DNA of 64,000 nt. Source: Escherichia phage vB_EcoP_PAS59. Shown piece after piece: positions 21,784-41,482 of the stretch. The stretch lies in sequence record OQ921332.1. One strand, given 5' to 3'. Position numbers and translations under genes: made by a program. The notes under the pieces were generated by a model. That model did not search any database. It had not been told where the DNA came from and was given only the letters and a program-made list of their open reading frames with translations. The first letter of the stretch is position 1, and each line of letters opens with the position of its first letter.

Positions 21784-22390
21784 AAACTTCATTGTGCATG
21801 TAAAAGTTGGTGAACTCGGTGAAACCCGACCATTAAGTTGAGGGCAATACCGAGCTAAGCTATTAGGAGGTGATATGGCTAAGAAAGATCTAGTGTTAGA
21901 AACTACTGACACAGGATGTATCATCCCTATCTCACACAAACTTAATAAAGATGGTTACTTCAGAAAGGTAATAGATGGCAAATGGGTCATGTATCACCGA
22001 TACGTCATGGAAGAAAAGTTTGGAAAGATTCCTGATGGGTTTGAAGTAAACCATAAATGCAAGAACAGAGCTTGCTGTAACACAGACCACCTAGAGATTC
22101 TATGGGGGAGTGCTCATGCAATAGAATCCAATACAGGTAGAAACAGAGAAAGACAGGAAGCTGCTAAAGAATTCTGGCTTAATAATGAATGTACCGGTGT
22201 TGCTCTTGCGGAAAGATTTGGTGTGAGCTTTGGAATCGCTTGTAGATGGATTCGAAAGTGGAAAGTGTAGAGACTATCCTTTGGGAGTAGGGGGTTAACA
22301 GGGAAACCCTCGAAGCGCCAACAACAGCAAATTAGCTATGCTGTTATGATATAGTCCGATACCCGAAGTAATTTGGGAATAACATAAATG
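21784..22390 (+). mobile_element. group I intron (IA-like) carrying an HNH endonuclease ORF
   Basis: 5' exon ends in U; P1 pairing of AUGCAU (21778-83) with GUGCAU (21794-99); R-like 'AGAGACUAUC' (about 22266-75) and S-like 'AUGAUAUAGUCC' (about 22346-58); terminal G at 22390. Confidence 0.6.
21875..22270 (+). CDS. intron-encoded HNH homing endonuclease
   Basis: 'EVNHKCKNRACCNTDHLEILWGS'; AGGAGG before ATG. Confidence 0.7.
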   Translation: MAKKDLVLETTDTGCIIPISHKLNKDGYFRKVIDGKWVMYHRYVMEEKFGKIPDGFEVNHKCKNRACCNTDHLEILWGSAHAIESNTGRNRERQEAAKEFWLNNECTGVALAERFGVSFGIACRWIRKWKV

Positions 22391-29243: not shown

Positions 29244-30054
29244 TGTAATCTATCCTGAAGTGGCAATTGTGGATGCAGATGTTCTACGATATGAAGTCGG
29301 TGCTCTTACACAAGAGCATCCTTTTCTAGACACAGGTCGTGTTCCAGTTGATTATGGATTCTTGATTGAACGACTTCAACATAAAATAGATGTAATCATT
29401 GCAAGGTCTGGTTGCGAGAAAACAATCTTTTACTTCAGCGAAGGTGGTAATTTTCGGTTTGATATTGCTAAGCAGCAAGGCTATAAAGCTAATCGACCAC
29501 CGGGAGAAAGACCTCACCACTGGCAAAATGTCAGTGATTACATTAAAGAGAATTACGAATACGTAGAAGTTTTTGGGAGAGAGGCGGATGATGCCCTAGC
29601 TGAAAGACAGAGACGTGATAAGAACACTATCATTTGCACCCGTGATAAAGATTTGTTAATCACTCCCGGATGGCATTACCGTTGGGCTTGCGGGGAGAGA
29701 CAGAAAGAAGTACCTCCTCACTATGTATCAGAGGAAGTAGCATGGCAGAACTTCTTCTACCAGATGCTGATCGGGGATAGCACAGATAACATTCCCGGAT
29801 GCGGTGAGAAGGTTGAAATGATGTGGGGTGGCAATCTAGTAATGCGTCGTAAAGGCATTGGTAGTAAGGCTGCAATCAAACTTATTGAGAAGGTATTCGA
29901 TAAGTGGACTCTTTATCATATTATACGAATGGAATACTATAAAAGGTTCGAGGAAGAAGCAGAAGCTAAGATGTTAGAAAATGCTCGATTGCTCTTCGTT
30001 GGACAAGCTGAAGGTGACCTCTTTGATTGGTCATGGTTAAACAAGGAATGGTGA
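29236..30054 (+). CDS. 5'-3' exonuclease / flap endonuclease
   Basis: 'LIGDSTDNIPGCGEKV...GIGSKAAIKLI' H3TH-type motif, acidic clusters. Confidence 0.65.
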   Translation: MSDVIYPEVAIVDADVLRYEVGALTQEHPFLDTGRVPVDYGFLIERLQHKIDVIIARSGCEKTIFYFSEGGNFRFDIAKQQGYKANRPPGERPHHWQNVSDYIKENYEYVEVFGREADDALAERQRRDKNTIICTRDKDLLITPGWHYRWACGERQKEVPPHYVSEEVAWQNFFYQMLIGDSTDNIPGCGEKVEMMWGGNLVMRRKGIGSKAAIKLIEKVFDKWTLYHIIRMEYYKRFEEEAEAKMLENARLLFVGQAEGDLFDWSWLNKEW

Positions 30055-30542
30055 TCTTGGATAGAGAAGAGTTAAAAAGGCTTCTCAAGTATGATCCAAA
30101 TAGTGGTCAGTTTACTTGGAAAGTTAAGAAAGGTAGGAAGAATGTTGGAGATGCGGCTGGATGCTTTTATGGAAAACATAGATACCGCTGCATCAAGTTA
30201 AATCAAATATTGTATCAATCTCATAGACTTGCATACCTTTACATGGAAGGTTACATTCCTGATTGTGTAGACCACATAGACGGAGACCCTTCTAATAACA
30301 AGTGGTGCAATCTAAGAGAAGCAACTTTAAGTCAGAATCAGTGGAACAGAAAGATCTCTATAAACTGCACTTCCGGAATCAAGGGAGTCTCTTTCCATAA
30401 AAGAGCTAATAAGTGGAGAGCTATTATTGGAGTGTCTGGGAAATCTATCCATCTAGGGTATTATGCAACTAAAGAAGAGGCTGAAGAAGCCCTGAGACTG
30501 AAAAGAGAAGACCTACACTTAGGCTTTCATCGTCACAAATAA
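30027..30542 (+). CDS. HNH-AP2 homing endonuclease (start uncertain)
   Basis: 'LKYDPNSGQFTWK...SHRLAYLY...DHIDGDPSNNKWCNLR' plus 'GIKGVSFHKRANKWRA'. Confidence 0.65.
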   Translation: MVMVKQGMVILDREELKRLLKYDPNSGQFTWKVKKGRKNVGDAAGCFYGKHRYRCIKLNQILYQSHRLAYLYMEGYIPDCVDHIDGDPSNNKWCNLREATLSQNQWNRKISINCTSGIKGVSFHKRANKWRAIIGVSGKSIHLGYYATKEEAEEALRLKREDLHLGFHRHK

Positions 30543-31418: not shown

Positions 31419-31922
31419 ATGAATGAAGAGAAGTGGACCCATTTTCTATACTCCTCTGAATCTCCTTCTGGATTTCTCTGGAGGAGTAAACCAGCCCCTT
31501 TTGTAAAAATAGGAAGCGTGGTAGGTACGAAAAACAAGAAAGGTTATTGGGAAATCAACACCAAAAACTCTGGAAGAATTAAAGCTCATCGGTTGGTTTG
31601 GGAGTACCATAATGGACCTATCCCAGAAGGGTTTTTGGTAGACCACATAGATAATAACCTAGACAACAATACAATAGAAAATCTTAGACTTTGTAATGCG
31701 AAGGAAAGTGCTAGGAATACTAGAGGTTGGAGCAGTAAAAGAGATTCTTTACCTAAAGGTATTCATGACAACTCTCATGGAGGAAAGAATCCGGGATACT
31801 ACCAAGCTCGAATTTACATATCAGGTAAATCTTACACGAAATCTTCATACGATATCTTATATTTACACAGATGGCTTAAGAGTAAAAGAGAGGAACATCA
31901 TGGAGAGTTTAAAAAAGATTGA
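31419..31922 (+). CDS. HNH-AP2 homing endonuclease
   Basis: 'SPSGFLWRSK...AHRLVWEY...DHIDNNLDNNTIENLR'. Confidence 0.65.
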   Translation: MNEEKWTHFLYSSESPSGFLWRSKPAPFVKIGSVVGTKNKKGYWEINTKNSGRIKAHRLVWEYHNGPIPEGFLVDHIDNNLDNNTIENLRLCNAKESARNTRGWSSKRDSLPKGIHDNSHGGKNPGYYQARIYISGKSYTKSSYDILYLHRWLKSKREEHHGEFKKD

Positions 31923-31994: not shown

Positions 31995-34900
31995 TTACTC
32001 CTTAGCTCGAACTCTAACACGGAGTTTAGCTTGACGCTTACTTCTCTCCAACTTGTCAGACAGAGAACCACGTTTGACTTTCAACTCTCCCTCGTCATTA
32101 TACTTCTCCAAGAACTGTAAATACTCTTGTCGAGTAGTTGTCTTGTAAGAAGGAATCTTAGCATTAGGATTCGCTTCAATCACACGTCTAATCTTAGCTA
32201 CATCATCCCTCCCTAAAAGTTTCCCTTTAGCTTGTTCTGCTGTAGAACCAAAGATCTTCTCAAGTGCTCGAGATTTGTTACCACCTGCCGAAGCAGCACC
32301 AAGTTTCGCAATAGCAGAATAATCATCAGCACTAAACCAAGCCACTGGATTATCTCCATAACGTTTCTTGTTCTCAGCAGCAGTCTGTAGAGCACGCACA
32401 AATCGACGGTTGTTACCAGCCTTATCTGCACCATGAACCCTATCTAGAACCTCTGCAACACTCGCCAACTCCTGCAAGTCTTTCCCTTCAATAAAAGCTT
32501 TCTCTGCTTTGTTAGCAAAGTCGTCTTCCTGCTTCTTAATACTTTCAAGAATATCAGAGTTAGCCTGAGATCTTTCATCCTCAGGTAGAGCCGAACGAAT
32601 CTTCTCCATTTCTTTCTCTTCATCTAAAAGTTTCTTAAAGTCAGAATCAACTTTACGAGCATCTTCGATAGCTTTTGATGTTTCTGCATCAAGGTCAGAA
32701 GTTTTCCCATCTGCATCACCAGTTGCCTTAGCAATCTCTCTTTCGATTGGAGTAGCTGTTTCATACTTCTTAACAAACTTCTCTACGTCAGATTCGATAC
32801 GAGCACGAGCATTCTGATGTTCCACTGGAGTCATAGGTTTCTCTAACAAAGCATACCGATTGTCCATATAAGAACCAGCATACGCTTCAGCATCCTCCCT
32901 AGAAACCCCCTTCTCTTCCAAAGTGTTGACTAAACGCTTATGAATGTCGTCACGTTGACGTTGAACTGCCATTAGGTCATTCTCTCGTTCCTGAGCTTCT
33001 TTCAGAGCCTTATCTCTCTTCACTCTAGAATCAATATCAAACCTACGGTTCATTTCCTCAGCCTGTTCATACATCCTATTCCACTTAGCCTCACGAGCAT
33101 CTTCCTCTGCTTCGGTCAAACGACGTTTGCGATCGAGGTAATCACTCTCAGCGTTGTGAATACGTTCAATAATACTACGGAAACGCTCTGGTGGTACTGG
33201 AGAGTTTTTATCATGGTGAGCAGCAAGCTGCTTCAAAGTACGACCTTCCTGAGCTTCTCTGACACTTTCAGGCAATTCTTTGAACATCTTCTCCATCTCG
33301 GACTTCTGAGCCGCTATAGCTTCCAAGGACTGCTTTTCAGCTTCCATAGCTGCCTTGGCATCATTACGAGCCTTAGCTCTGTTACGGAGCGTCTCAAGAC
33401 GTTCTTGACGTGCTTGCAAGTGTTTAGCCGCTGCTTCGTATTGAGAGTTCTTGTTAGCCTTGTTGAACATGTTAACTTCTCGGTTATATGTATTGATAAA
33501 CCCATCCCACACATCCTTCATTTGACCAACTTCCAAAGCCTCAACCCTTCCAGCTTTCTCTGAAGATTTAAACTTACTCTCCACGAAGTCTTCCATAATC
33601 CTACGCATAGCATCTTTCTGAGCAGGACGTAACGGTTCTGCATCAAGCAGTGTACCAATTTCATCCTGAAGCTCTTTCTTCTGATCTACCAGTTTAGGAG
33701 CATCTTTCTTGTCAAAAGCTTTATTCTCTTCCAGAGCCTCTCGATAGAGACGGTCAAATTCATCATCTCTCTGTTTCTGATATAAACGCTCAGCTCTTCG
33801 TTTCAGTGAGTCTAGACTTGTGACGTTTCCACCCAAACCCTTCTCTTCAGCACGTAAAGCCTTAGTAGCAATATCAGAAGGCAACCCACGCTCTTTTACC
33901 CAATCAGCAAAAGAAGAACGAACATGTTGAGACTTAGCAGAAGCAATACCTTGCTGTGAAGCTAGCTGGTTTCTAGCCATCTCTTCATGACGCTGTGTGT
34001 TGTTTGCTTGGTCTTCCTGACGGATACGACGCATAAGCTCTTTAGGGTCTCCTTTATAAGAAAGGAAGTTTTCCGCAGTAGCTTTGGCTTTAGCAGCAGC
34101 CGAATACAAAGAACGAGCAAATCGGTCAGCACGATCTTTTGTTGCCTGACGGGCAGCAGTTGACATAGAAGCCAGACGCTCTACACCGAGTGATGGTTTA
34201 ACAGGCTCAGGAGCCTTCTCAGGAGCTTTGGGCGCACGAGCAGGTAATGGCTCAGGTTTCTCTTGAGGTTCCTCTACGGTCTTCTCAGGAGCTTCTTTAG
34301 CACGTTCTGCTTCCTCTGCTTCTTGACGTTTCTTCGCTTCTGCTACAGCTCTGCGCTGAGCTACTAGTTCTCTTGCTGTCAGTGCTTCTTGCTGTGGTTC
34401 AGGTTCTGGAGTAGTGCTTTCTTGAGCCTGAGCAGCTTCCGCTTCTTGACGTCTAAGTTCTGCTTGTTGTAGAGCACGTCTTTGAGCAACTAAATCTCTT
34501 GCCGTAAGAGGTGTTTCAGTAGGAGCTGGAGAGGAAGGAATTTCTTCCGTCACAGTAGTAGCAGAAGGCTCCTCACGAACCGGTTCGGAAGGGGCATCAT
34601 TTTGGGTACGGAATTTGATGTCTTCTGTGGTTGGTTCTTCTTCCATTTTTGCTCTTGCTTCTTCGGCTTGAGTTCTAGCTCGTTGTACTTCTAAATCCGC
34701 TCTAGCCAAAGAACGAATAGCTTCACTATTAGCTGACTGTTGTTTCTCTCGTTGAGCACGAGCACGATCAGAAGTGAAACGATTAAGTACATACTTAGCC
34801 GCACCAAGAGGATTCTTAACCAAGACAGGAGCTGGAGCTTCACGGAAACCATCATCAGTCAGAGAGGTCCAACCGCGATCTTGGTTGCTCATGAACTTAG

Positions 34901-36440
34901 CCGTGTTATTTAAAGTGAAAGCATCTTGAATAGGATTAAACCCTTCAGGCATACCTTTCAGTTTCTTCAACCCACCAATAGCCTTCTTCATCTCTGGAGA
35001 AACATTATCAGAGAGCTTCTGCAACTGAGTAGCTTTCTCAATGAAGTTATTTAGATCTTCGCCATCACGAGCTTTGAAACGATTTGCTTCGCTGTAGAAG
35101 GTCTTGTAGGCATCAATAAAGTCACGGTCAGCTTGTGTACGGTTCTTAATGTCAATAGCACTACCAGTAAAGTCACCACTCGCTCGGAGAGCTACTAACT
35201 CTCGGTCTAGGTTGTCTAGAACATCAGTAAGAGCCTTGGTGTTGTCTTTAGTGTAGTCAGCCATCGCATCTTTCATTGCTACAGCTTGTTTCTGGTTATA
35301 CTCATTGTCAGCAAAAGCTTTACCTTGAGTCTTCTTAGGAGAAGCTAAAGGATTGAGACCGGGAACGTTAGAACTGTCTTTCTGAACAGTAGCAGCCTTC
35401 TCTGCACGACTTTGGTCTGTATTTAAGATGCGCTGAACAGCAGGAGAATCCATAGCAACTGCATCAGTGATACGGAAACCATTTTCATCTAGAAGATTTA
35501 AAGCAGAAGCAGCATTAGCATTCTCAGCTTTAGAGTAGGCTTCACGAAGTTCATCAGCATTAGCAGCTTTACGAATAGCTTCATCTTCAGCAGCAATATC
35601 AGTTTTAACATGCTCAGGAGTACGGTCAAATACTTGAGGGCTAGAACGACTTATCAATCCATGAACCCCACCAATTGCCCCACCATAAGCAGCACCAAGT
35701 GCACCCTCTTCAATAGCCCCTTCTAAGACATTAGCGAGAGTAGTATCATCCCCATATTTGTTCTGAGCTTCAGCAGCACCTACAATAGCACCACCCTTAG
35801 CACCCGCAACTGCGTTGGAAGCTACGCTCTGTCCTACACGACCAAGAGTCGTAGAAGCTGTACCAGTCATACCCGGAAGGATTTTCTGAGCAGCGTAGTT
35901 AGCACCACCAACAAGAGCAGCATCCAGAACTGACTTGTCTTCGTCTTCTTTTGGAGTTTGGTCAGCATATGCACGACCTGTTTCACGAGCCGCAATAACA
36001 GCAGCAGCAACAGCAGGGTTTGCAACTGTCAAACCAATATCAGCAGCAACTCCAGCATACTGACCAGCTGTTTTACCAAAACCATCTTCTATTTTAGATA
36101 AGCGCTCTTCTAACAATTGCTTGGAGTTCTCTTGAATACGCTTACCGTAGCTTGTTTCTGAACCAGTTAAGTTTTCACCAATCTCTACCAGCCCACCTAT
36201 ACCCCTAGCAGCACTAGCTGCAATGTTAGCACCACCAGATTGAAGAGCGTTAGACACACCTTGAGCAAACTCCCCAATAGCACCTCGTTCTTCTTGTTGT
36301 GGTTGCTCTTGTGGTTGAGTCTCAGGAATAGTGCCCCCTGCTGCCTTGTATTGTTCTCTCATTTGAGCCTGTTGCTCTGGAGAGGCATTCAGATACGCAG
36401 GAGCTTTGGAAGCTTCTTCCCACGATTTTAAATTAGCCAT
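31995..36440 (-). CDS. large internal virion / ejection protein (putative)
   Basis: 1481 aa, Gly/Ala-rich N-terminus, long coiled-coil and acidic/basic repeats; last gene of the late operon. Confidence 0.4.
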   Translation of the reverse strand: MANLKSWEEASKAPAYLNASPEQQAQMREQYKAAGGTIPETQPQEQPQQEERGAIGEFAQGVSNALQSGGANIAASAARGIGGLVEIGENLTGSETSYGKRIQENSKQLLEERLSKIEDGFGKTAGQYAGVAADIGLTVANPAVAAAVIAARETGRAYADQTPKEDEDKSVLDAALVGGANYAAQKILPGMTGTASTTLGRVGQSVASNAVAGAKGGAIVGAAEAQNKYGDDTTLANVLEGAIEEGALGAAYGGAIGGVHGLISRSSPQVFDRTPEHVKTDIAAEDEAIRKAANADELREAYSKAENANAASALNLLDENGFRITDAVAMDSPAVQRILNTDQSRAEKAATVQKDSSNVPGLNPLASPKKTQGKAFADNEYNQKQAVAMKDAMADYTKDNTKALTDVLDNLDRELVALRASGDFTGSAIDIKNRTQADRDFIDAYKTFYSEANRFKARDGEDLNNFIEKATQLQKLSDNVSPEMKKAIGGLKKLKGMPEGFNPIQDAFTLNNTAKFMSNQDRGWTSLTDDGFREAPAPVLVKNPLGAAKYVLNRFTSDRARAQREKQQSANSEAIRSLARADLEVQRARTQAEEARAKMEEEPTTEDIKFRTQNDAPSEPVREEPSATTVTEEIPSSPAPTETPLTARDLVAQRRALQQAELRRQEAEAAQAQESTTPEPEPQQEALTARELVAQRRAVAEAKKRQEAEEAERAKEAPEKTVEEPQEKPEPLPARAPKAPEKAPEPVKPSLGVERLASMSTAARQATKDRADRFARSLYSAAAKAKATAENFLSYKGDPKELMRRIRQEDQANNTQRHEEMARNQLASQQGIASAKSQHVRSSFADWVKERGLPSDIATKALRAEEKGLGGNVTSLDSLKRRAERLYQKQRDDEFDRLYREALEENKAFDKKDAPKLVDQKKELQDEIGTLLDAEPLRPAQKDAMRRIMEDFVESKFKSSEKAGRVEALEVGQMKDVWDGFINTYNREVNMFNKANKNSQYEAAAKHLQARQERLETLRNRAKARNDAKAAMEAEKQSLEAIAAQKSEMEKMFKELPESVREAQEGRTLKQLAAHHDKNSPVPPERFRSIIERIHNAESDYLDRKRRLTEAEEDAREAKWNRMYEQAEEMNRRFDIDSRVKRDKALKEAQERENDLMAVQRQRDDIHKRLVNTLEEKGVSREDAEAYAGSYMDNRYALLEKPMTPVEHQNARARIESDVEKFVKKYETATPIEREIAKATGDADGKTSDLDAETSKAIEDARKVDSDFKKLLDEEKEMEKIRSALPEDERSQANSDILESIKKQEDDFANKAEKAFIEGKDLQELASVAEVLDRVHGADKAGNNRRFVRALQTAAENKKRYGDNPVAWFSADDYSAIAKLGAASAGGNKSRALEKIFGSTAEQAKGKLLGRDDVAKIRRVIEANPNAKIPSYKTTTRQEYLQFLEKYNDEGELKVKRGSLSDKLERSKRQAKLRVRVRAKE

Positions 36441-36476
36441 AACGTCTCCTTATAAATAAAAATGTCCTACCTCCTA

Positions 36477-36485
36477 TATACATTA
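36477..36485 (-). promoter_or_regulatory. TAATGTATA promoter-like element upstream of the 1481-aa gene
   Basis: Plus-strand TATACATTA in the 70-bp gap between 36511 and 36440. Confidence 0.4.
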
Positions 36486-36510
36486 TAAGAGATAGGACTT
36501 AGGTCTTAGA

Positions 36511-38178
36511 TTACTGTAACATCCAACTTGTGTCCGCTGGAGCAGAAGAAAGAGCACCTGTTAATCGAGGATTTGTAGCATCCCCACCAACAGCTGCTTC
36601 AGCTTCACTCTCAAACGTACCGAATGGGTCATAGAAACCAGCAGAAGGAATAGCACGGTTGACAAGAGCTGTCGCTCGTTTCTTATCCATACCAGAGCCA
36701 ATATACGCTTCGATCGTTGCTTTCTTAGCATCCTTAACACCCTTCTCAGCGGAAGTAGCACCAACAGTTGCCTGCTTACGAGCATATGACAGAGCAGCAT
36801 CAGAGGGACGATAACCTGCTTTAAGTGACCATGTATTACCCAACTTAACAAAGATGGACGGGTCTTCTGCAAAGTGGGCTAAGTCATCAGCTTGGAGAGA
36901 ACGGTTAGCACCGATTTCTGCCCTTGCGGAGTTCATAATAGCCTGCATGTAAGCAGAACGAGCAGTTTGGTAATCCTTATCCTTAACAGCTTTGTCTGCC
37001 AAATCCAAGTCCTTATGAGACTGGTTGAACAGACCTGCTTTCTCTGCCCACTGCTTAGCAACTGTACCTTCTGCTGTGTTCTGAGCCAGACGAACTTCTT
37101 TCGGATTGAAAGTAAAGCTCTGAGCAGCTTTCTCTGCACGATCTGCTTTAACTTGATCACGATATCCAATAAGTTCTTTCTGTTTCTCAAACTGAGCATT
37201 AGCACGTTCTTCAGCAGCACGGCGAGTTTCAGCAGCACGCTCCCGCATAGAGTTCTCTTGAATCTGCTGACGTCTATCCCATTCACGGTTAGCACGTTCT
37301 TCATCTTGAGCAGCAAGAGCCATTTTCTCCTGAGGACTAATTTGACGCATTTTAAGAAGAGAAGGATCTCCTGAAGCAATTGCAGCAGCAACCGAGTCTT
37401 GAGAGTAGCCTTGCTCTAACAGAGCGTCACGATTAGCTTCTAACTGTTGTTTAGTTTCATCCTGAGCAGCCAAACCAGAGCCAATCTGGAAAGCTTCAAT
37501 AGGGGACTTACCAGACATAATAGAAAGACCAACACCCATCAACCCTGTATAGAAACTAGACTTCTGATAGAAAGGTTGTTTTTGAAGTTCATTCCAAGCT
37601 TGAGCTGGGTCTTTGGCTTTAGCAACTTCCATAATATCATTATTGATACGCTCTTGATCTTTAGCACGGGTAGCACCAGCCATACCTTCAGGAGCAGGAT
37701 TACTATTAGCTAGAGTATTAATAACGTTCTGAGCCTGTTCCACCTGAACTGGAGAAAACTCTTTATCTGTTTCTTCCAGAGGTTTACGAGGGGGGGTAAC
37801 AGGAAGAGGATCACTAGGCATTAATCCAGCAGCCTGTAAACCTTCATCAGAGGAAAGATCTGGATTAGCCACAGCAGGAGCTGGTTCACCGATATCAATA
37901 CCCTGAAGGCTCGTAGGGGTTCCTTGATTCTCTGATTCCAGAAGTCTCTGTCTGAATCCTGGGTTTAACATAGCCTCTTGATCTTCCTGAGCAGTAGCAA
38001 CAAGAGAAGATAAACCTACAGGAGAGGCAGGAGGTCTCTGACTATACATTGAAACATCAGCAGCTGGGTAAGCAGGTCTTGCCATGTATGGAGAGGCCGA
38101 AGCGGCCCCTTGTTTAACACCATAAATCTGATTTCTTGGGTCTTGACTGCGAAGATACGCATAAGAAGTTTGTTGCAT
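36511..38178 (-). CDS. internal virion protein (putative)
   Basis: 555-aa ORF in the structural block; no motif. Confidence 0.35.
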   Translation of the reverse strand: MQQTSYAYLRSQDPRNQIYGVKQGAASASPYMARPAYPAADVSMYSQRPPASPVGLSSLVATAQEDQEAMLNPGFRQRLLESENQGTPTSLQGIDIGEPAPAVANPDLSSDEGLQAAGLMPSDPLPVTPPRKPLEETDKEFSPVQVEQAQNVINTLANSNPAPEGMAGATRAKDQERINNDIMEVAKAKDPAQAWNELQKQPFYQKSSFYTGLMGVGLSIMSGKSPIEAFQIGSGLAAQDETKQQLEANRDALLEQGYSQDSVAAAIASGDPSLLKMRQISPQEKMALAAQDEERANREWDRRQQIQENSMRERAAETRRAAEERANAQFEKQKELIGYRDQVKADRAEKAAQSFTFNPKEVRLAQNTAEGTVAKQWAEKAGLFNQSHKDLDLADKAVKDKDYQTARSAYMQAIMNSARAEIGANRSLQADDLAHFAEDPSIFVKLGNTWSLKAGYRPSDAALSYARKQATVGATSAEKGVKDAKKATIEAYIGSGMDKKRATALVNRAIPSAGFYDPFGTFESEAEAAVGGDATNPRLTGALSSAPADTSWMLQ

Positions 38179-38192
38179 AATTATTCTCCTAA

Positions 38193-39164
38193 TTAAGAGC
38201 TAGCTAAGCCACCGATAACACCGCCAGCTAAAGCACCCCAAGGGCCAAAAGCTGAACCAGCAGCAGCACCACTCGCAGCACCGCCTAGGAAGCCTCCACT
38301 ACCACCAGATGTTTTAGTAGTTGTGGTTGTTCCCAAAGCCCCGTTAAGAACCCCGGCAGCACCTAGTTGATTGTTAATATCCTGCCAACCCCAATTAGCA
38401 GCATTCTGAGCATTCTCATAAGCATTGTTCAAATCAGACTGCTGTTGTTGCTGCTGTTGCAGTCCTGCATTCCACTGATTCATCATTTGCTGTTGTGATA
38501 GCTGACCAGCTTGGTTTCCTAGATTAGCAAGGTTGGAGCCAATGTTAGATAAACCACCTAAAGCAGATGCTTGTGTTTGTCTATTACCAGAAAGAATGTT
38601 CTGTGCTTGAGTTAGAGCAGAGTCATAGGCACTATTAGTAATATTAGTTGCTGTGTTCTGCATCTGGTTCAGAGCATCACCCTGAGCAAAAGATTTAGCC
38701 ATACGTGCACCAGAACCTTGCTGACCAGCAAACTGCTGAGAGATTTGAGGAAGTGCATTCCTAGCCAAACTCTGTTGGGTTTGTTCATTATTCGCTGCAA
38801 TAGCTGCTTGCACAGCCTCGTCGTCATAGAGCTGGCCTGCAAGAGCCCCAATCTGTTCTCCAGTGATTTGACCAGAGTTTGCAAGGTTGTTATATCCAGA
38901 GTATGTGTTATCTAGATACCCTAAACCAGATTGAGCAGCATCCATGTATTGAGAAGAAAGTGCACCTAATGCACCAGATTGTGATAGGTTGTTCAGAGCC
39001 TCTTGCTGGTTTTGATTAAGTCCAACATTTTCTCGATACACATAATCGCCTGAACTAGTGTTATTAACCTGATTGACCAGCTGATCAATATAGGATTGAA
39101 TGTAGTCAGGTCTTGTCATTTTAGAAGTAGTCTTGCTACTCCCACCACCAAATAAACCTGCCAT
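38193..39164 (-). CDS. Gln/Asn/Gly-rich virion protein, tandem paralog 1
   Basis: 'M-x-x-FG...KTT', 'EALNNLSQS', 'NAGLQQQQQ...NWGWQ', Gly-rich hydrophobic C-terminus. Confidence 0.4.
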   Translation of the reverse strand: MAGLFGGGSSKTTSKMTRPDYIQSYIDQLVNQVNNTSSGDYVYRENVGLNQNQQEALNNLSQSGALGALSSQYMDAAQSGLGYLDNTYSGYNNLANSGQITGEQIGALAGQLYDDEAVQAAIAANNEQTQQSLARNALPQISQQFAGQQGSGARMAKSFAQGDALNQMQNTATNITNSAYDSALTQAQNILSGNRQTQASALGGLSNIGSNLANLGNQAGQLSQQQMMNQWNAGLQQQQQQQSDLNNAYENAQNAANWGWQDINNQLGAAGVLNGALGTTTTTKTSGGSGGFLGGAASGAAAGSAFGPWGALAGGVIGGLASS

Positions 39165-39613
39165 TATTTACCTCCTCGCAGATATTTAATTGCATTTTCT
39201 AGGTTTTCTGGTGAATCTTTAAAAAGACCTAAACCAGTGTTACAACTAGAACACAGCAAACCTCTAATGTGAAGACCTTCATGACAATGATCGACAGCAA
39301 GTCTCTTAACAACCCCTTTCAGGGTTGCTGTCTCTGGTTGACCACAGATTGCACAAAGTCCTTCTTGCTTTTCAAACAGTGCATCATATTCTGCAAGAGT
39401 TATTCCATAAAGTCTTCTCAGGTTTCGGTCTGTTATATTCTCAACAGGTTCACCATAGAGTTTTTTATAGTATGACGGACTGGTTGTTTCTAAACCAGAG
39501 CTTTTGAGTTTTCTTTTTTCTTTCTCTCTCTGGCGGCTAGCCAGATATTTAGATACATCCCTATAACCTTTCTTACGAGCAGCAGCTATAGTGGATTCTG
39601 AGTATTCTTCCAT
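39164..39613 (-). CDS. endonuclease VII-like (His-Me finger) nuclease, putative junction resolvase
   Basis: 'CAICGQ...LAVDHCHEGLHIRGLLCSSCNTGLG' matches the endo VII signature. Confidence 0.55.
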   Translation of the reverse strand: MEEYSESTIAAARKKGYRDVSKYLASRQREKEKRKLKSSGLETTSPSYYKKLYGEPVENITDRNLRRLYGITLAEYDALFEKQEGLCAICGQPETATLKGVVKRLAVDHCHEGLHIRGLLCSSCNTGLGLFKDSPENLENAIKYLRGGK

Positions 39614-39622
39614 AGCTCCTCC

Positions 39623-40675
39623 TTAATTTGCTCCAAAGGCTCCTAGAACACCACCTAAGATATTACTCCCTGCGGTAGATAGCCAGTTGCTCTGACCGTT
39701 CTGTTGAGACAGGTTTGAGCCACCAATCATAGGACCAGCCATCCCAGCTTGACCTCCAGAAGCATTGTACGAATTCCAAGCATTAGTAGTTTGCTGGTTA
39801 GGGGTAAAAGCACCTAGACGACCAGCAATACCAAGACCAGTAATCCCAGCACCAAGGATTTGTTGTGAAGCATTAGGGGCAGCACCTCTATTAGTAATAG
39901 TGTACCCAGCCATTGGACTTACTGAGTTTAATACATTAAGCTGATTGTTAAGCTGATTCCAACCATACTGCTGACTACCAATAGCATTCTCCCAATTGTT
40001 GTTAGCTTGGAGTTGATCTTGCTGCTGTTGAAGGTTTCCAGCAATGAGCTGATTCTGTATTGCCTGTTGACCAGCTTGTACTCCAGCAGCACCTAGATTC
40101 AAGTTCTGACCTGCTAAACCAGATTGAGCATTTAGCAAACCTTGCTGATAAGAGTTGTTATTCAGAAGATTACTAACACCCATATTTTTACCCTGAATAG
40201 AGCGAGAGAGGTTAGTATTCGCTGAAGAAAGAGCAGCACCTTGGGCAGCAGCACGTCTCAGAGAACCTGAGTCAGATCCATTGCCAAGGGATACATTAGC
40301 AGCAGCTTTACCTGTAGACTTAGCTAGTGCAGAATTATTCAATCCAGAACTAAAGTTATTAACATCCTGAGCAGAGATACCACCTTTATTAACTAGGTTT
40401 TGGTATTTCTGAGCCAACTCATTCATCTGGTCTAGCCCTTGTTGAGTTCGAGGAGTATACATCTGACTAAGTTGGTTAAGTGTATTAGAGTTTGCTAAAT
40501 TAGAAAGAGCTGCCGTTTGGCCTTCATTAAAGCCCGCTATATTACGACTGATGAACCCTTGGTCATTTTGATTCATAGCTTGGGCATTGGCTACAATCTG
40601 TTTCAGAAGAGCATCAACCTGAGAAGACGGAGCTACCGTAGTCTTAGATTTAGGAGCAGAACCGAAAAGAGACAT
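39623..40675 (-). CDS. Gln/Asn/Gly-rich virion protein, tandem paralog 2
   Basis: 'MSLFG...KSKTT', 'TAALSNLANSN', 'LQQQQDQLQANNNWEN', Gly-rich C-terminus. Confidence 0.4.
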   Translation of the reverse strand: MSLFGSAPKSKTTVAPSSQVDALLKQIVANAQAMNQNDQGFISRNIAGFNEGQTAALSNLANSNTLNQLSQMYTPRTQQGLDQMNELAQKYQNLVNKGGISAQDVNNFSSGLNNSALAKSTGKAAANVSLGNGSDSGSLRRAAAQGAALSSANTNLSRSIQGKNMGVSNLLNNNSYQQGLLNAQSGLAGQNLNLGAAGVQAGQQAIQNQLIAGNLQQQQDQLQANNNWENAIGSQQYGWNQLNNQLNVLNSVSPMAGYTITNRGAAPNASQQILGAGITGLGIAGRLGAFTPNQQTTNAWNSYNASGGQAGMAGPMIGGSNLSQQNGQSNWLSTAGSNILGGVLGAFGAN

Positions 40676-40684
40676 ATGTCCTCC

Positions 40685-41482
40685 TTATCTGTAAATGTCA
40701 GTGCCTATGCTAGACAGACGTCTAAGCACGGCTTGTGTTTGTGGACTATATCGAGAACCTGCCTGAGTGGGAGCATGTGCTCTTTGCACAGTTTGAGAGT
40801 TAGGTTGCTTTCCTGCAAGCATAGAGGCAGCTGCCAATACAGCATTACCAAAATTCTGTTGAGGTTTTTGATCCTCTCCGGAAGATTGTTCGTCAGAGTA
40901 AAACTCTACAGGACTACCACCTAAAGCTCCAGCCTTACTTGCAGCTATCTCTGCCTGAGTTGGAGCATTAGCAGCTCCTTCTTTAGTAAGTGTGTTAGAG
41001 CCGAATTGGTCTACAGGTTGTGCTGCTTTCAAAGCACCGACAGGGTTAGCCACTTGAGATGCTGCTGTATTCTTATCAAAGAATGGTAGGAACAGTTTGT
41101 TATTCATCGAATCCAAAGCCTGAGGCGTAAACCCCTTCTTACCAGAGAACATCTGTTTAGCACCGCCAGTCCCTTCTGAATATCCCACCAAAGCCTTCCT
41201 CACATCGCCATCAAAAGCTTTTAGATTATCTCTTAAATATCTAGCACCCATGTCAATATTCTTTGCAGGGTCTAGCCTATCTTCAAGTTTGTACCCATAA
41301 TCTTTAGCCAACCCCTTACTAATTTGCATTAAACCTACTGGCCCTGTACCTGATGCAACAGAGGGTCTACCACTAGACTCCCTCTGGATAACTGCATGGA
41401 TAAGAGCAGCAGGAATGCCGTACTTCTTAGAAGCTTGCTGGACCATAGGATCTAGCTCAGACACTCCCATTCTTATTGTCAT
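40685..41482 (-). CDS. virion protein with lytic transglycosylase (SLT) domain
   Basis: 'QRESSGRPSVASGTGPVGLMQI' SLT catalytic motif. Confidence 0.6.
   Translation of the reverse strand: MTIRMGVSELDPMVQQASKKYGIPAALIHAVIQRESSGRPSVASGTGPVGLMQISKGLAKDYGYKLEDRLDPAKNIDMGARYLRDNLKAFDGDVRKALVGYSEGTGGAKQMFSGKKGFTPQALDSMNNKLFLPFFDKNTAASQVANPVGALKAAQPVDQFGSNTLTKEGAANAPTQAEIAASKAGALGGSPVEFYSDEQSSGEDQKPQQNFGNAVLAAASMLAGKQPNSQTVQRAHAPTQAGSRYSPQTQAVLRRLSSIGTDIYR

Follow-up and report, generated by a model that had tools for sequence, protein, structure and literature searches.

The nuclease gene that lies between two ejection-protein genes in Escherichia phage vB_EcoP_PAS59 is probably an optional, mobile cassette. 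Our comparisons point to a free-standing homing endonuclease gene (HEG) of the endonuclease VII (Endo VII)/DHHRN type, inserted precisely at the start codon of the downstream ejection-protein gene. The DNA analysed is a 64,000-nt stretch of sequence record OQ921332.1, hereafter called the window, in which three tightly packed minus-strand open reading frames (ORFs) are found in the order paralog 1, nuclease gene and paralog 2 (Table 1). PAS59 is a prolate-headed, phiEco32-like podophage (Gordonclarkvirinae, Suseptimavirus), and the nuclease is 100% identical to a protein encoded by its 79,199-bp genome. In this region, the closest relative is Escherichia phage EK010 (95.5% identity), followed by SU7 and Bas86 (87-88%); all three are Gordonclarkvirinae. 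The paper on PAS59 discusses neither the paralogs nor the nuclease gene.

The way the cassette is joined to its surroundings was seen by comparing the window with genomes that lack it. In EK010, the junction between the paralogs reads ...GCAAATTAAGGAGGAGCT ATG GCT TTA TTT GG..., and in the window it reads ...GCAAATTAAGGAGGAGCT ATG GAA GAA ...(nuclease)... CTG CGA GGA GGT AAA TA ATG GCA GGT TTA TTT GG.... The inserted DNA comprises the nuclease ORF after the shared ATGG, a new Shine-Dalgarno (SD) sequence, a new ATG and new codons 2-3 (GCA GGT) for paralog 2, whose N-terminus is consequently MAGLFGG in the window versus MALFGG in EK010. The native SD, which drives paralog 2 in HEG-less relatives, drives the nuclease gene here. 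Thus, the nuclease ORF took over the resident SD and ATG of paralog 2. The last codons of the nuclease gene supply a replacement ribosome-binding site (RBS), ATG and codon 2, so that expression of the downstream ejection gene would be preserved; the nuclease stop and the paralog-2 start overlap as TAATG. The same cassette-borne SD arrangement is present in all five nuclease alleles known from this junction (see below) and in gene 13.5 of phage phiYeO3-12. The GC content of the cassette is 38.7% as compared to 43-45% in its flanks.

Comparison with relatives, one of the checks proposed in an earlier sequence-only reading of this region, showed that the gene is optional. It is missing from about 97 of the 98 database relatives, in which 9-12 nt separate the paralogs (EK010, Bas86 and SU10 included). 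A search with a 581-nt region spanning the nuclease gene matched 74 records; only myPSH1131 covers the gene, and the others listed are partial matches to the flanks. When contigs are considered as well, four pairs of HEG-containing (HEG+) and HEG-less (HEG-) sequences were identified: PAS59/EK010, L009/L020, L010/L019 and myPSH1131/SU10. Identity within the pairs is 95.5-100% over the 200-nt flanks, and going upstream from the junction, the first mismatch is met at 69-135 nt. In every pair the two sequences part right after the ATG and rejoin past codon 2-3 of paralog 2. The presence and absence of the gene is therefore a precise polymorphism at one site in collinear close relatives, observed in four lineages.

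Codon 2 of paralog 2 varies with the type of cassette, whatever the host lineage. The protein begins M-A-G with cassettes of the PAS59/L009 type and M-S with those of the L010, L014 and myPSH types, as would follow from these bases moving as part of the cassette. The two members of each HEG+/HEG- pair differ at codon 2, yet one HEG-less sequence, L020 (ENA ERZ27252837 k141_580830, 1311-2279), with flanks identical to those of HEG+ L009, carries a paralog 2 starting M-S-LFGG. This codon may be the footprint of a past cassette loss or exchange. We also considered codon 2 as a universal "immunity" change; this was rejected since there is no single resistant variant and HEG-less L020 has MS.

Five diverged nuclease alleles occupy this same junction (Table 1), with amino acid identities of 45-75%. 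All are intact and have full catalytic motifs. Synonymous sites between them are saturated, so we report that nonsynonymous differences per site (pN, ~0.17) are much lower than synonymous ones (pS, 0.75-0.89) rather than a dN/dS ratio; these values indicate purifying selection. The allele of myPSH1131 (MG983840.1, 2887-3276) is an intact ORF of the Endo VII type that went unannotated in GenBank. The neighboring genes in that record seem to be truncated or rearranged, with an internal Met as the start of paralog 1 and broken-up gp23- and gp24-like ORFs; an assembly error may be the cause.

The relationships among the alleles conflict with those of the genomes that carry them. The nucleases of myPSH1131 and L014 are 75% identical, whereas their flanking proteins share only 43-51% identity. 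The myPSH1131 flanking proteins are instead 78-81% identical to the window's, and synonymous divergence (dS) between myPSH1131 and HEG-less SU10 is 0.098 in the adjacent gene. The same site is thus occupied in divergent genomes by nucleases whose phylogeny disagrees with that of the flanks, which is the pattern looked for as a sign of horizontal transfer of a HEG.

Several observations nevertheless weigh against an active homing element. First, nuclease and flank identities to the window are similar in L009 (74 vs 74-77%), L010 (56 vs 57-63%) and L014 (49 vs 46-54%), a pattern of divergence that also fits long vertical residence with repeated loss. Second, no extended co-conversion tract surrounds the cassette: each side has 0-7 mismatches to EK010 per 100 nt, a density that does not exceed that of other regions, and a donor-derived flank was rejected as the PAS59 flanks are equally EK010-like next to the cassette and elsewhere. 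Third, the cassette occurs in only ~2 of 100 sequenced isolates, which is low for an efficient homing element. A role for the cassette as a recombination boundary was also considered, since identity to Bas86 falls to its right (94.8% vs 81%), but this was rejected because the drop starts ~1-2 kb away.

These points raise the question of whether the nuclease is ancestral at this site, has been inherited vertically, was lost from most sampled lineages and is no longer mobile. The matched divergence of nuclease and flanks in L009, L010 and L014, the lack of a co-conversion tract and the rarity of the gene among isolates are all in keeping with such a history. However, the myPSH1131 allele groups with that of L014 even though its flanks group with SU10 and PAS59, and near-identical flanks in HEG+ and HEG- genomes of four lineages require recent, precise gain or loss. 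Further, a simple deletion between the ATGG repeats cannot give the HEG-less sequence because codon 2 differs, and five intact alleles under purifying selection would be unexpected for a stranded, non-functional homing gene. Based on these observations, we consider an immobile ancestral gene unlikely and favor the mobile cassette, although HEG+ and HEG- alleles may have long co-circulated within lineages, with losses as well as gains.

The sequence-only reading had described the middle gene as a His-Me finger nuclease with the endo VII signature in what seemed an odd place for a resolvase-type gene. The family assignment was borne out. The 149-aa ORF matches the Pfam family Endonuclease_7 (PF02945) at 5e-25 (87.6 bits, cutoff 23.6), and no other ORF of the Endo VII type occurs in the window. 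Its catalytic motif, CxxC...DHxH...R...CxxCN, occupies residues 87-125 of 149 and follows a basic N-terminal region of 75 aa. In an alignment with 16 homologs, C87, C90, D108, H109, H111, R117, C121, C124 and N125 are invariant or nearly so. These residues align to those of T4 Endo VII and Hpy99I, and all metal-binding and catalytic positions are kept, including the counterparts of the positions that define T4 Endo VII, namely the zinc ligands and D40, H41, H43, R54 and N62 (PMC6083498). The middle gene therefore encodes an intact Endo VII-family His-Me nuclease, with activity predicted from these residues.

Identity as a resolvase is improbable, given that the gene is absent from nearly all relatives, and the location appears odd no longer because the gene is probably not a resolvase. 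A true T4 gp49-like Holliday-junction resolvase would debranch replicated DNA before packaging, with its place in a late operon providing the timing. In addition to the Pfam match, the gene matches PHROG families named "endonuclease VII" and has the T4 catalytic residues; late co-expression with packaging would suit a resolvase, and relative Bas86 lacks any other annotated resolvase. On the other hand, about 97 of 98 related phages are viable without it; as it is absent from all but one related record, it is not the conserved core gene that a gp49-type resolvase would be, and in four lineages it is a precise insertion/deletion polymorphism. With T4 Endo VII, only the catalytic domain (T4 residues 9-72) can be aligned. 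The window protein ends ~12 residues past the nuclease core and has no counterpart of the T4 C-terminal dimerization and junction-binding domain, so that it has neither the T4 domain order nor a full-length alignment to T4; with its motif at the C-terminus, the domain order is reversed. A better match was found in Hpy99I, a sequence-specific enzyme. We therefore regard the resolvase alternative as highly improbable.

The class to which the nuclease belongs can be predicted more closely from its nearest characterized relatives. Hpy99I (PDB 3fc3) was the only PDB match of the single sequence (3e-9), covering the nuclease core to the C-terminal ...YLK tail, and a family profile matched Hpy99I at 2.4e-12 and T4 Endo VII at 1.9e-7. 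Although the nuclease resembles Hpy99I more than T4 Endo VII in sequence, Hpy99I is a type II restriction enzyme from a bacterium and is paired with a methylase; there is no methylase here and the N-terminal domains are unrelated. Fang et al. (2018) divided proteins with the Endo VII motif into two clades (PMC6083498). Members of the resolvase clade have an N-terminal motif and align with T4 over the full length, while those of the endonuclease clade have a C-terminal motif and include F-CphI, intron-encoded enzymes such as that of LUZ24, and Hpy99I (PMC6083498). The features of the window nuclease match the endonuclease clade as defined in that study, and LUZ24 gp35, a named member, is a 36%-identical match. 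Like the F-CphI/DHHRN enzymes, it has the CX2C...DH(D/C)H...R...CX2CN motif at the C-terminus, a non-homologous N-terminal region that is probably DNA-binding, and a closer similarity to Hpy99I than to T4 Endo VII; it is likewise a phage-borne, optional gene. It is set apart by its intergenic position within an ejection-protein operon and by an activity that is so far predicted.

Based on characterized phage homing endonucleases including F-CphI (PMC6083498), we infer site-specific cleavage, the identity of the target, immunity and biased inheritance for the window nuclease and its same-site alleles. No promoter- or terminator-like site was found within the cassette, and terminator-like hairpins bound the gene block at ~43587 and ~36498. 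With no promoter of its own and a position in a late operon, the nuclease would be made late, from the strong RBS of a structural gene. When a HEG-less relative infects the same cell, the nuclease would cleave that relative's DNA at the conserved junction or close to it; the candidate target consists of the 3′ end of paralog 1 (encoding ...GGVLGAFGAN and the stop codon), the SD, the ATG and the codons for M-x-LFGG. The break would then be repaired by recombination with the HEG+ genome, which would bring in the cassette along with its SD, ATG and codon 2. Carriers would escape cleavage, as the insertion interrupts and changes the sequence from SD through ATG to codon 2. Since the built-in RBS would keep paralog 2 expressed, the cost to the phage is predicted to be small.

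A similar cassette design is seen in T3-like phages. The best matches to the nuclease in characterized phages are gene 13.5 of phiYeO3-12 (43%) and "endonuclease VII" genes of T7-like Klebsiella phages (53-54%). These Autographiviridae genes are also optional small ORFs, located between internal-virion-protein genes 13 and 14, and the C-terminal ...YLRGE-stop of phiYeO3-12 gene 13.5 also encodes the RBS of the downstream gene. They belong to another phage family and have another target gene, as T7-like gp14 is not detectably related to the paralogs; the parallel is therefore one of cassette design and kind of locus, not of a shared target.

Alternatively, the nuclease may have been co-opted by the phage to exclude competing related phages, to degrade host DNA or to be packaged and delivered with the ejection proteins, in which case it would not be a purely selfish homing element. 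Consistent with this, it lies inside the ejection-protein operon behind a strong structural-gene RBS, it has been kept under purifying selection across deep divergence, and its closest T3-like homologs (phiYeO3-12 gene 13.5 and those of the Klebsiella phages) are also found between internal-virion-protein genes. However, almost all relatives lack the gene, so ejection does not require it, and nothing suggests that it is packaged; virion proteomics exist for only one relative, SU10, whose genome lacks the gene. Moreover, marker exclusion of HEG-less competitors is already ordinary homing-endonuclease biology. We thus regard co-option as very unlikely. A related speculation, which we also consider very unlikely, is that a long-lived lineage of Endo VII-type cassettes, represented in phiEco32-like phages and at gene 13.5 of T3-like phages, has specialized for insertion at start codons in podophage ejection operons, as a weapon against co-infecting relatives that is perhaps packaged and ejected. 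If true, the nuclease would be expressed at the levels of structural proteins and would possibly attack resident DNA.

The two genes that flank the cassette were proposed in the sequence-only reading to be duplicates, and this has been upheld by alignment. Paralogs 1 and 2 are 30% identical and collinear over 287 residues (composition-adjusted BLASTP, E=3e-12). Alanine, glycine, glutamine, asparagine and serine together make up >60% of each protein and no Pfam or NCBIfam family covers either, as would be the case if their likeness were due to a shared low-complexity composition only. Nevertheless, the Smith-Waterman score of the pair is 278, as compared to 96 +/- 13 in whole-sequence shuffles (z=14.4) and 115 +/- 15 in shuffles of 20-residue blocks, which retain local composition (z=10.7). 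Further, one PHROG profile, phrog_4287 ("DNA ejection protein"), matches both proteins end to end at ~1e-100. Since the scores are far above both sets of shuffles, the similarity is not the result of compositional bias, an explanation whose probability we consider practically nil, and the two proteins are true paralogs.

The pair has been kept in all relatives, including divergent metagenomic contigs in which orthologs are down to 46-54% identity. Because the paralogs are only 30% identical to each other and yet occur as a pair in divergent relatives, the tandem duplication that gave rise to them is old and predates the radiation of the subfamily. A legacy of this duplication was noted at the junction of the transglycosylase gene and paralog 1 (window 40660-40700, minus strand, GATAAGGAGGACATATGTCTCTTTTCGG...), which has 23 of 34 positions in common with the HEG-less junction between paralogs 1 and 2; this site is unoccupied in every genome examined. 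A copy of the pair with the transglycosylase gene and without the nuclease was also observed in a 389-kb chromosomal contig of E. coli (L017; GCA_023211535.1, DAHCAP010000002.1, 204317-225285), along with genes for a major capsid protein, portal and terminase of the SU10 type. The contig may thus hold an integrated relative of phages that are generally considered strictly lytic.

That these proteins might be ejection proteins had also been anticipated, and an answer was already available from phage SU10. Paralog 1 is 79% identical to SU10_021 and 98% to its EK010 ortholog; the values for paralog 2 are 81% to SU10_022 and 99% to EK010. Mass spectrometry detected SU10 gp20-24, with coverages of 53% for gp21 and 49% for gp22 (PMC4281155), and all five are defined as ejection proteins on the basis of their presence in virions and absence after genome release (PMC9509320). 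SU10 gp20 is an ejection protein with transglycosylase activity (PMC9509320). An ejection role is thus established for close orthologs of the paralogs, and the pair is not new; records of recent relatives label it "DNA ejection protein (x2)". Virion presence and release were demonstrated by proteomics for the SU10 proteins, while the window proteins are placed by orthology.

Membership in the gp21/gp22 family is supported by the PHROG matches and by the shared order of the transglycosylase (SLT) gene and genes 21, 22, 23 and 24 in SU10, EK010 and Bas86. In the window, the SLT gene lies upstream of paralog 1 in the direction of transcription and the 555-aa and 1481-aa ORFs lie downstream of paralog 2. 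A module of SLT and proteins of ~350, 322, 555 and 1480 aa, the gene order of SU10, was present in every relative examined. The transglycosylase, the two paralogs and the two large proteins therefore form a five-gene ejection module, a late operon found throughout the subfamily. The window paralogs also have in common with SU10 gp21 and gp22 the N-terminal M-x-LFGG...KTT motif and Gly-rich C-termini. In contrast to the window, SU10 has a 12-nt spacer with no gene between the two, and its gp22 begins with MG rather than MAG, the extra residue in the window having been brought by the cassette.

Based on SU10 and other podophages, the paralogs would be carried in the head and leave through the tail nozzle before the DNA, after which they and the other ejection proteins would build a trans-envelope conduit. 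The conserved C-terminus of paralog 1 is ...GSNILGGVLGAFGAN, and the Gly-rich C-terminal 40 residues of paralog 2 include nearly invariant positions and are among the best-conserved alignment columns. Such a tail would fit a glycine-zipper-type membrane or oligomerization segment. An AlphaFold2 model of paralog 2 (48-sequence alignment) is all-helical over residues 21-269 with an unstructured Gly-rich tail, and the model is poor (mean pLDDT 51.7, pTM 0.33). Largely helical bodies with conserved Gly-rich tails may be compatible with assembly in a membrane or into a channel; the poor model counts against this part of our interpretation, in which channel building is suggested by analogy. A Foldseek search of the model against PDB returned nothing (best E=0.08, TM below 0.2), and sequence searches of PDB, Pfam (up to E=10) and NCBIfam gave no match for the paralogs. 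The ejection proteins of T7 (gp14/gp15/gp16) and P22 (gp7/gp20/gp16) are functional analogs and no more: these head-packaged proteins leave ahead of the DNA and form a channel across the cell envelope, and a lytic transglycosylase activity is encoded next to them (PMC9509320). No sequence or fold similarity to the paralogs was detected. Remote homology between the paralogs and T7-like gp14, compared because related nuclease genes adjoin gp14, was rejected (hhalign probability 0.1%).

Table 1. Features of the ejection-protein region of the window and nuclease alleles found at the same junction in other sequences.
Feature	Position in window	Strand	Length	Basis and remarks
Lytic transglycosylase ejection protein, SU10 gp20 ortholog	40685..41482	-		PF01464 SLT, 6e-25; phrog_12507; first gene of ejection cassette
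Ejection-protein paralog 1, SU10 gp21 ortholog	39623..40675	-	350 aa	ORF; phrog_4287, 5.5e-102; Q/N/G/A-rich
Native spacer with Shine-Dalgarno (AAGGAGGAGCT before ATG)	39614..39622	-	9 nt	Same as EK010 through ATGG
Free-standing Endo VII-family (DHHRN, beta-beta-alpha-Me) homing-endonuclease-like gene	39164..39613	-	149 aa	PF02945; PHROG endonuclease VII families
Inserted cassette, replacing 1 nt of HEG-less allele	39157..39609	-	453 nt	blastn of window against EK010 and Bas86 leaves exactly this gap
Cassette-borne Shine-Dalgarno GAGGAGG	39171..39177	-		Within last nuclease codons (...YLRGGK-stop), 6 nt before paralog-2 ATG
Ejection-protein paralog 2, SU10 gp22 ortholog ("DNA injection protein")	38193..39164	-	323 aa	ORF; phrog_4287, 3.5e-98
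Two large downstream ejection proteins (SU10 gp23-like, gp24-like)	31995..38178	-	555 aa, 1481 aa	phrog_12130, phrog_14629; synteny with SU10_023/024
Same-site allele, myPSH1131			129 aa	Unannotated in its record; 48% identical to window protein
Same-site allele, L009 (Logan contig)			150 aa	74% identical to window protein
Same-site allele, L010-L013 (group of 12 contigs)			147 aa	56% identical to window protein
Same-site allele, L014 (divergent contig)			127 aa	49% identical to window protein

Neither the paralog pair nor this type of nuclease is new, the genome is published and all of the components are of known kinds. The practical value of our findings is modest, but they bear on how such genes are annotated. 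The name "endonuclease VII" implies a resolvase and is likely a mis-annotation here, as an optional element of the homing type describes the gene better, and its "hypothetical" neighbors are a conserved pair of ejection proteins. The locus also illustrates clearly, in a natural setting, how a structural operon whose genes are closely packed and translationally coupled can take in a free-standing nuclease gene without damage. In addition, the four HEG+/HEG- pairs define a testable candidate target of ~30 bp. Should its specificity be confirmed, the enzyme could become a tool for engineering phages of the Gordonclarkvirinae, which are of interest in phage therapy, or for selecting against them.

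Other nuclease genes of PAS59 are also optional. Relative to EK010 and Bas86, the DNA polymerase gene contains a 607-nt insertion (window 21784-22390) with an HNH_3 ORF at 21875-22270 (131 aa). This ORF is followed at 22271-22378 by a sub-threshold match to a group I intron (Intron_gpI, 30.9 bits against a gathering score of 50, E=7e-6 in an 851-nt search), and the insertion is probably an intron-borne homing endonuclease. Two further window-specific insertions, at 30040-30538 and 31419-31922, flank a region with an exonuclease and small genes; the former encodes an HNH_3+AP2 protein (ORF 30027-30542, 171 aa) and the latter an HNH_3 protein of 167 aa. Together with the Endo VII cassette, these three HNH_3 insertions give PAS59 at least four optional nuclease genes that are absent from its closest relatives. 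Homing-endonuclease insertions in Gordonclarkvirinae were also remarked on in the BASEL study.

Genes of the Endo VII type were also found in other settings. A scan of IMG/VR with the nuclease protein returned only one homolog, in an unrelated context adjoining a DNA polymerase gene. In Escherichia phage ManiMatter_Bas94 (PQ850617.1, 34699-35115), an Endo VII-type gene whose product is 36% identical to the window protein likewise adjoins the DNA polymerase gene. As this is a different locus, the subfamily hosts this nuclease family at more than one site.

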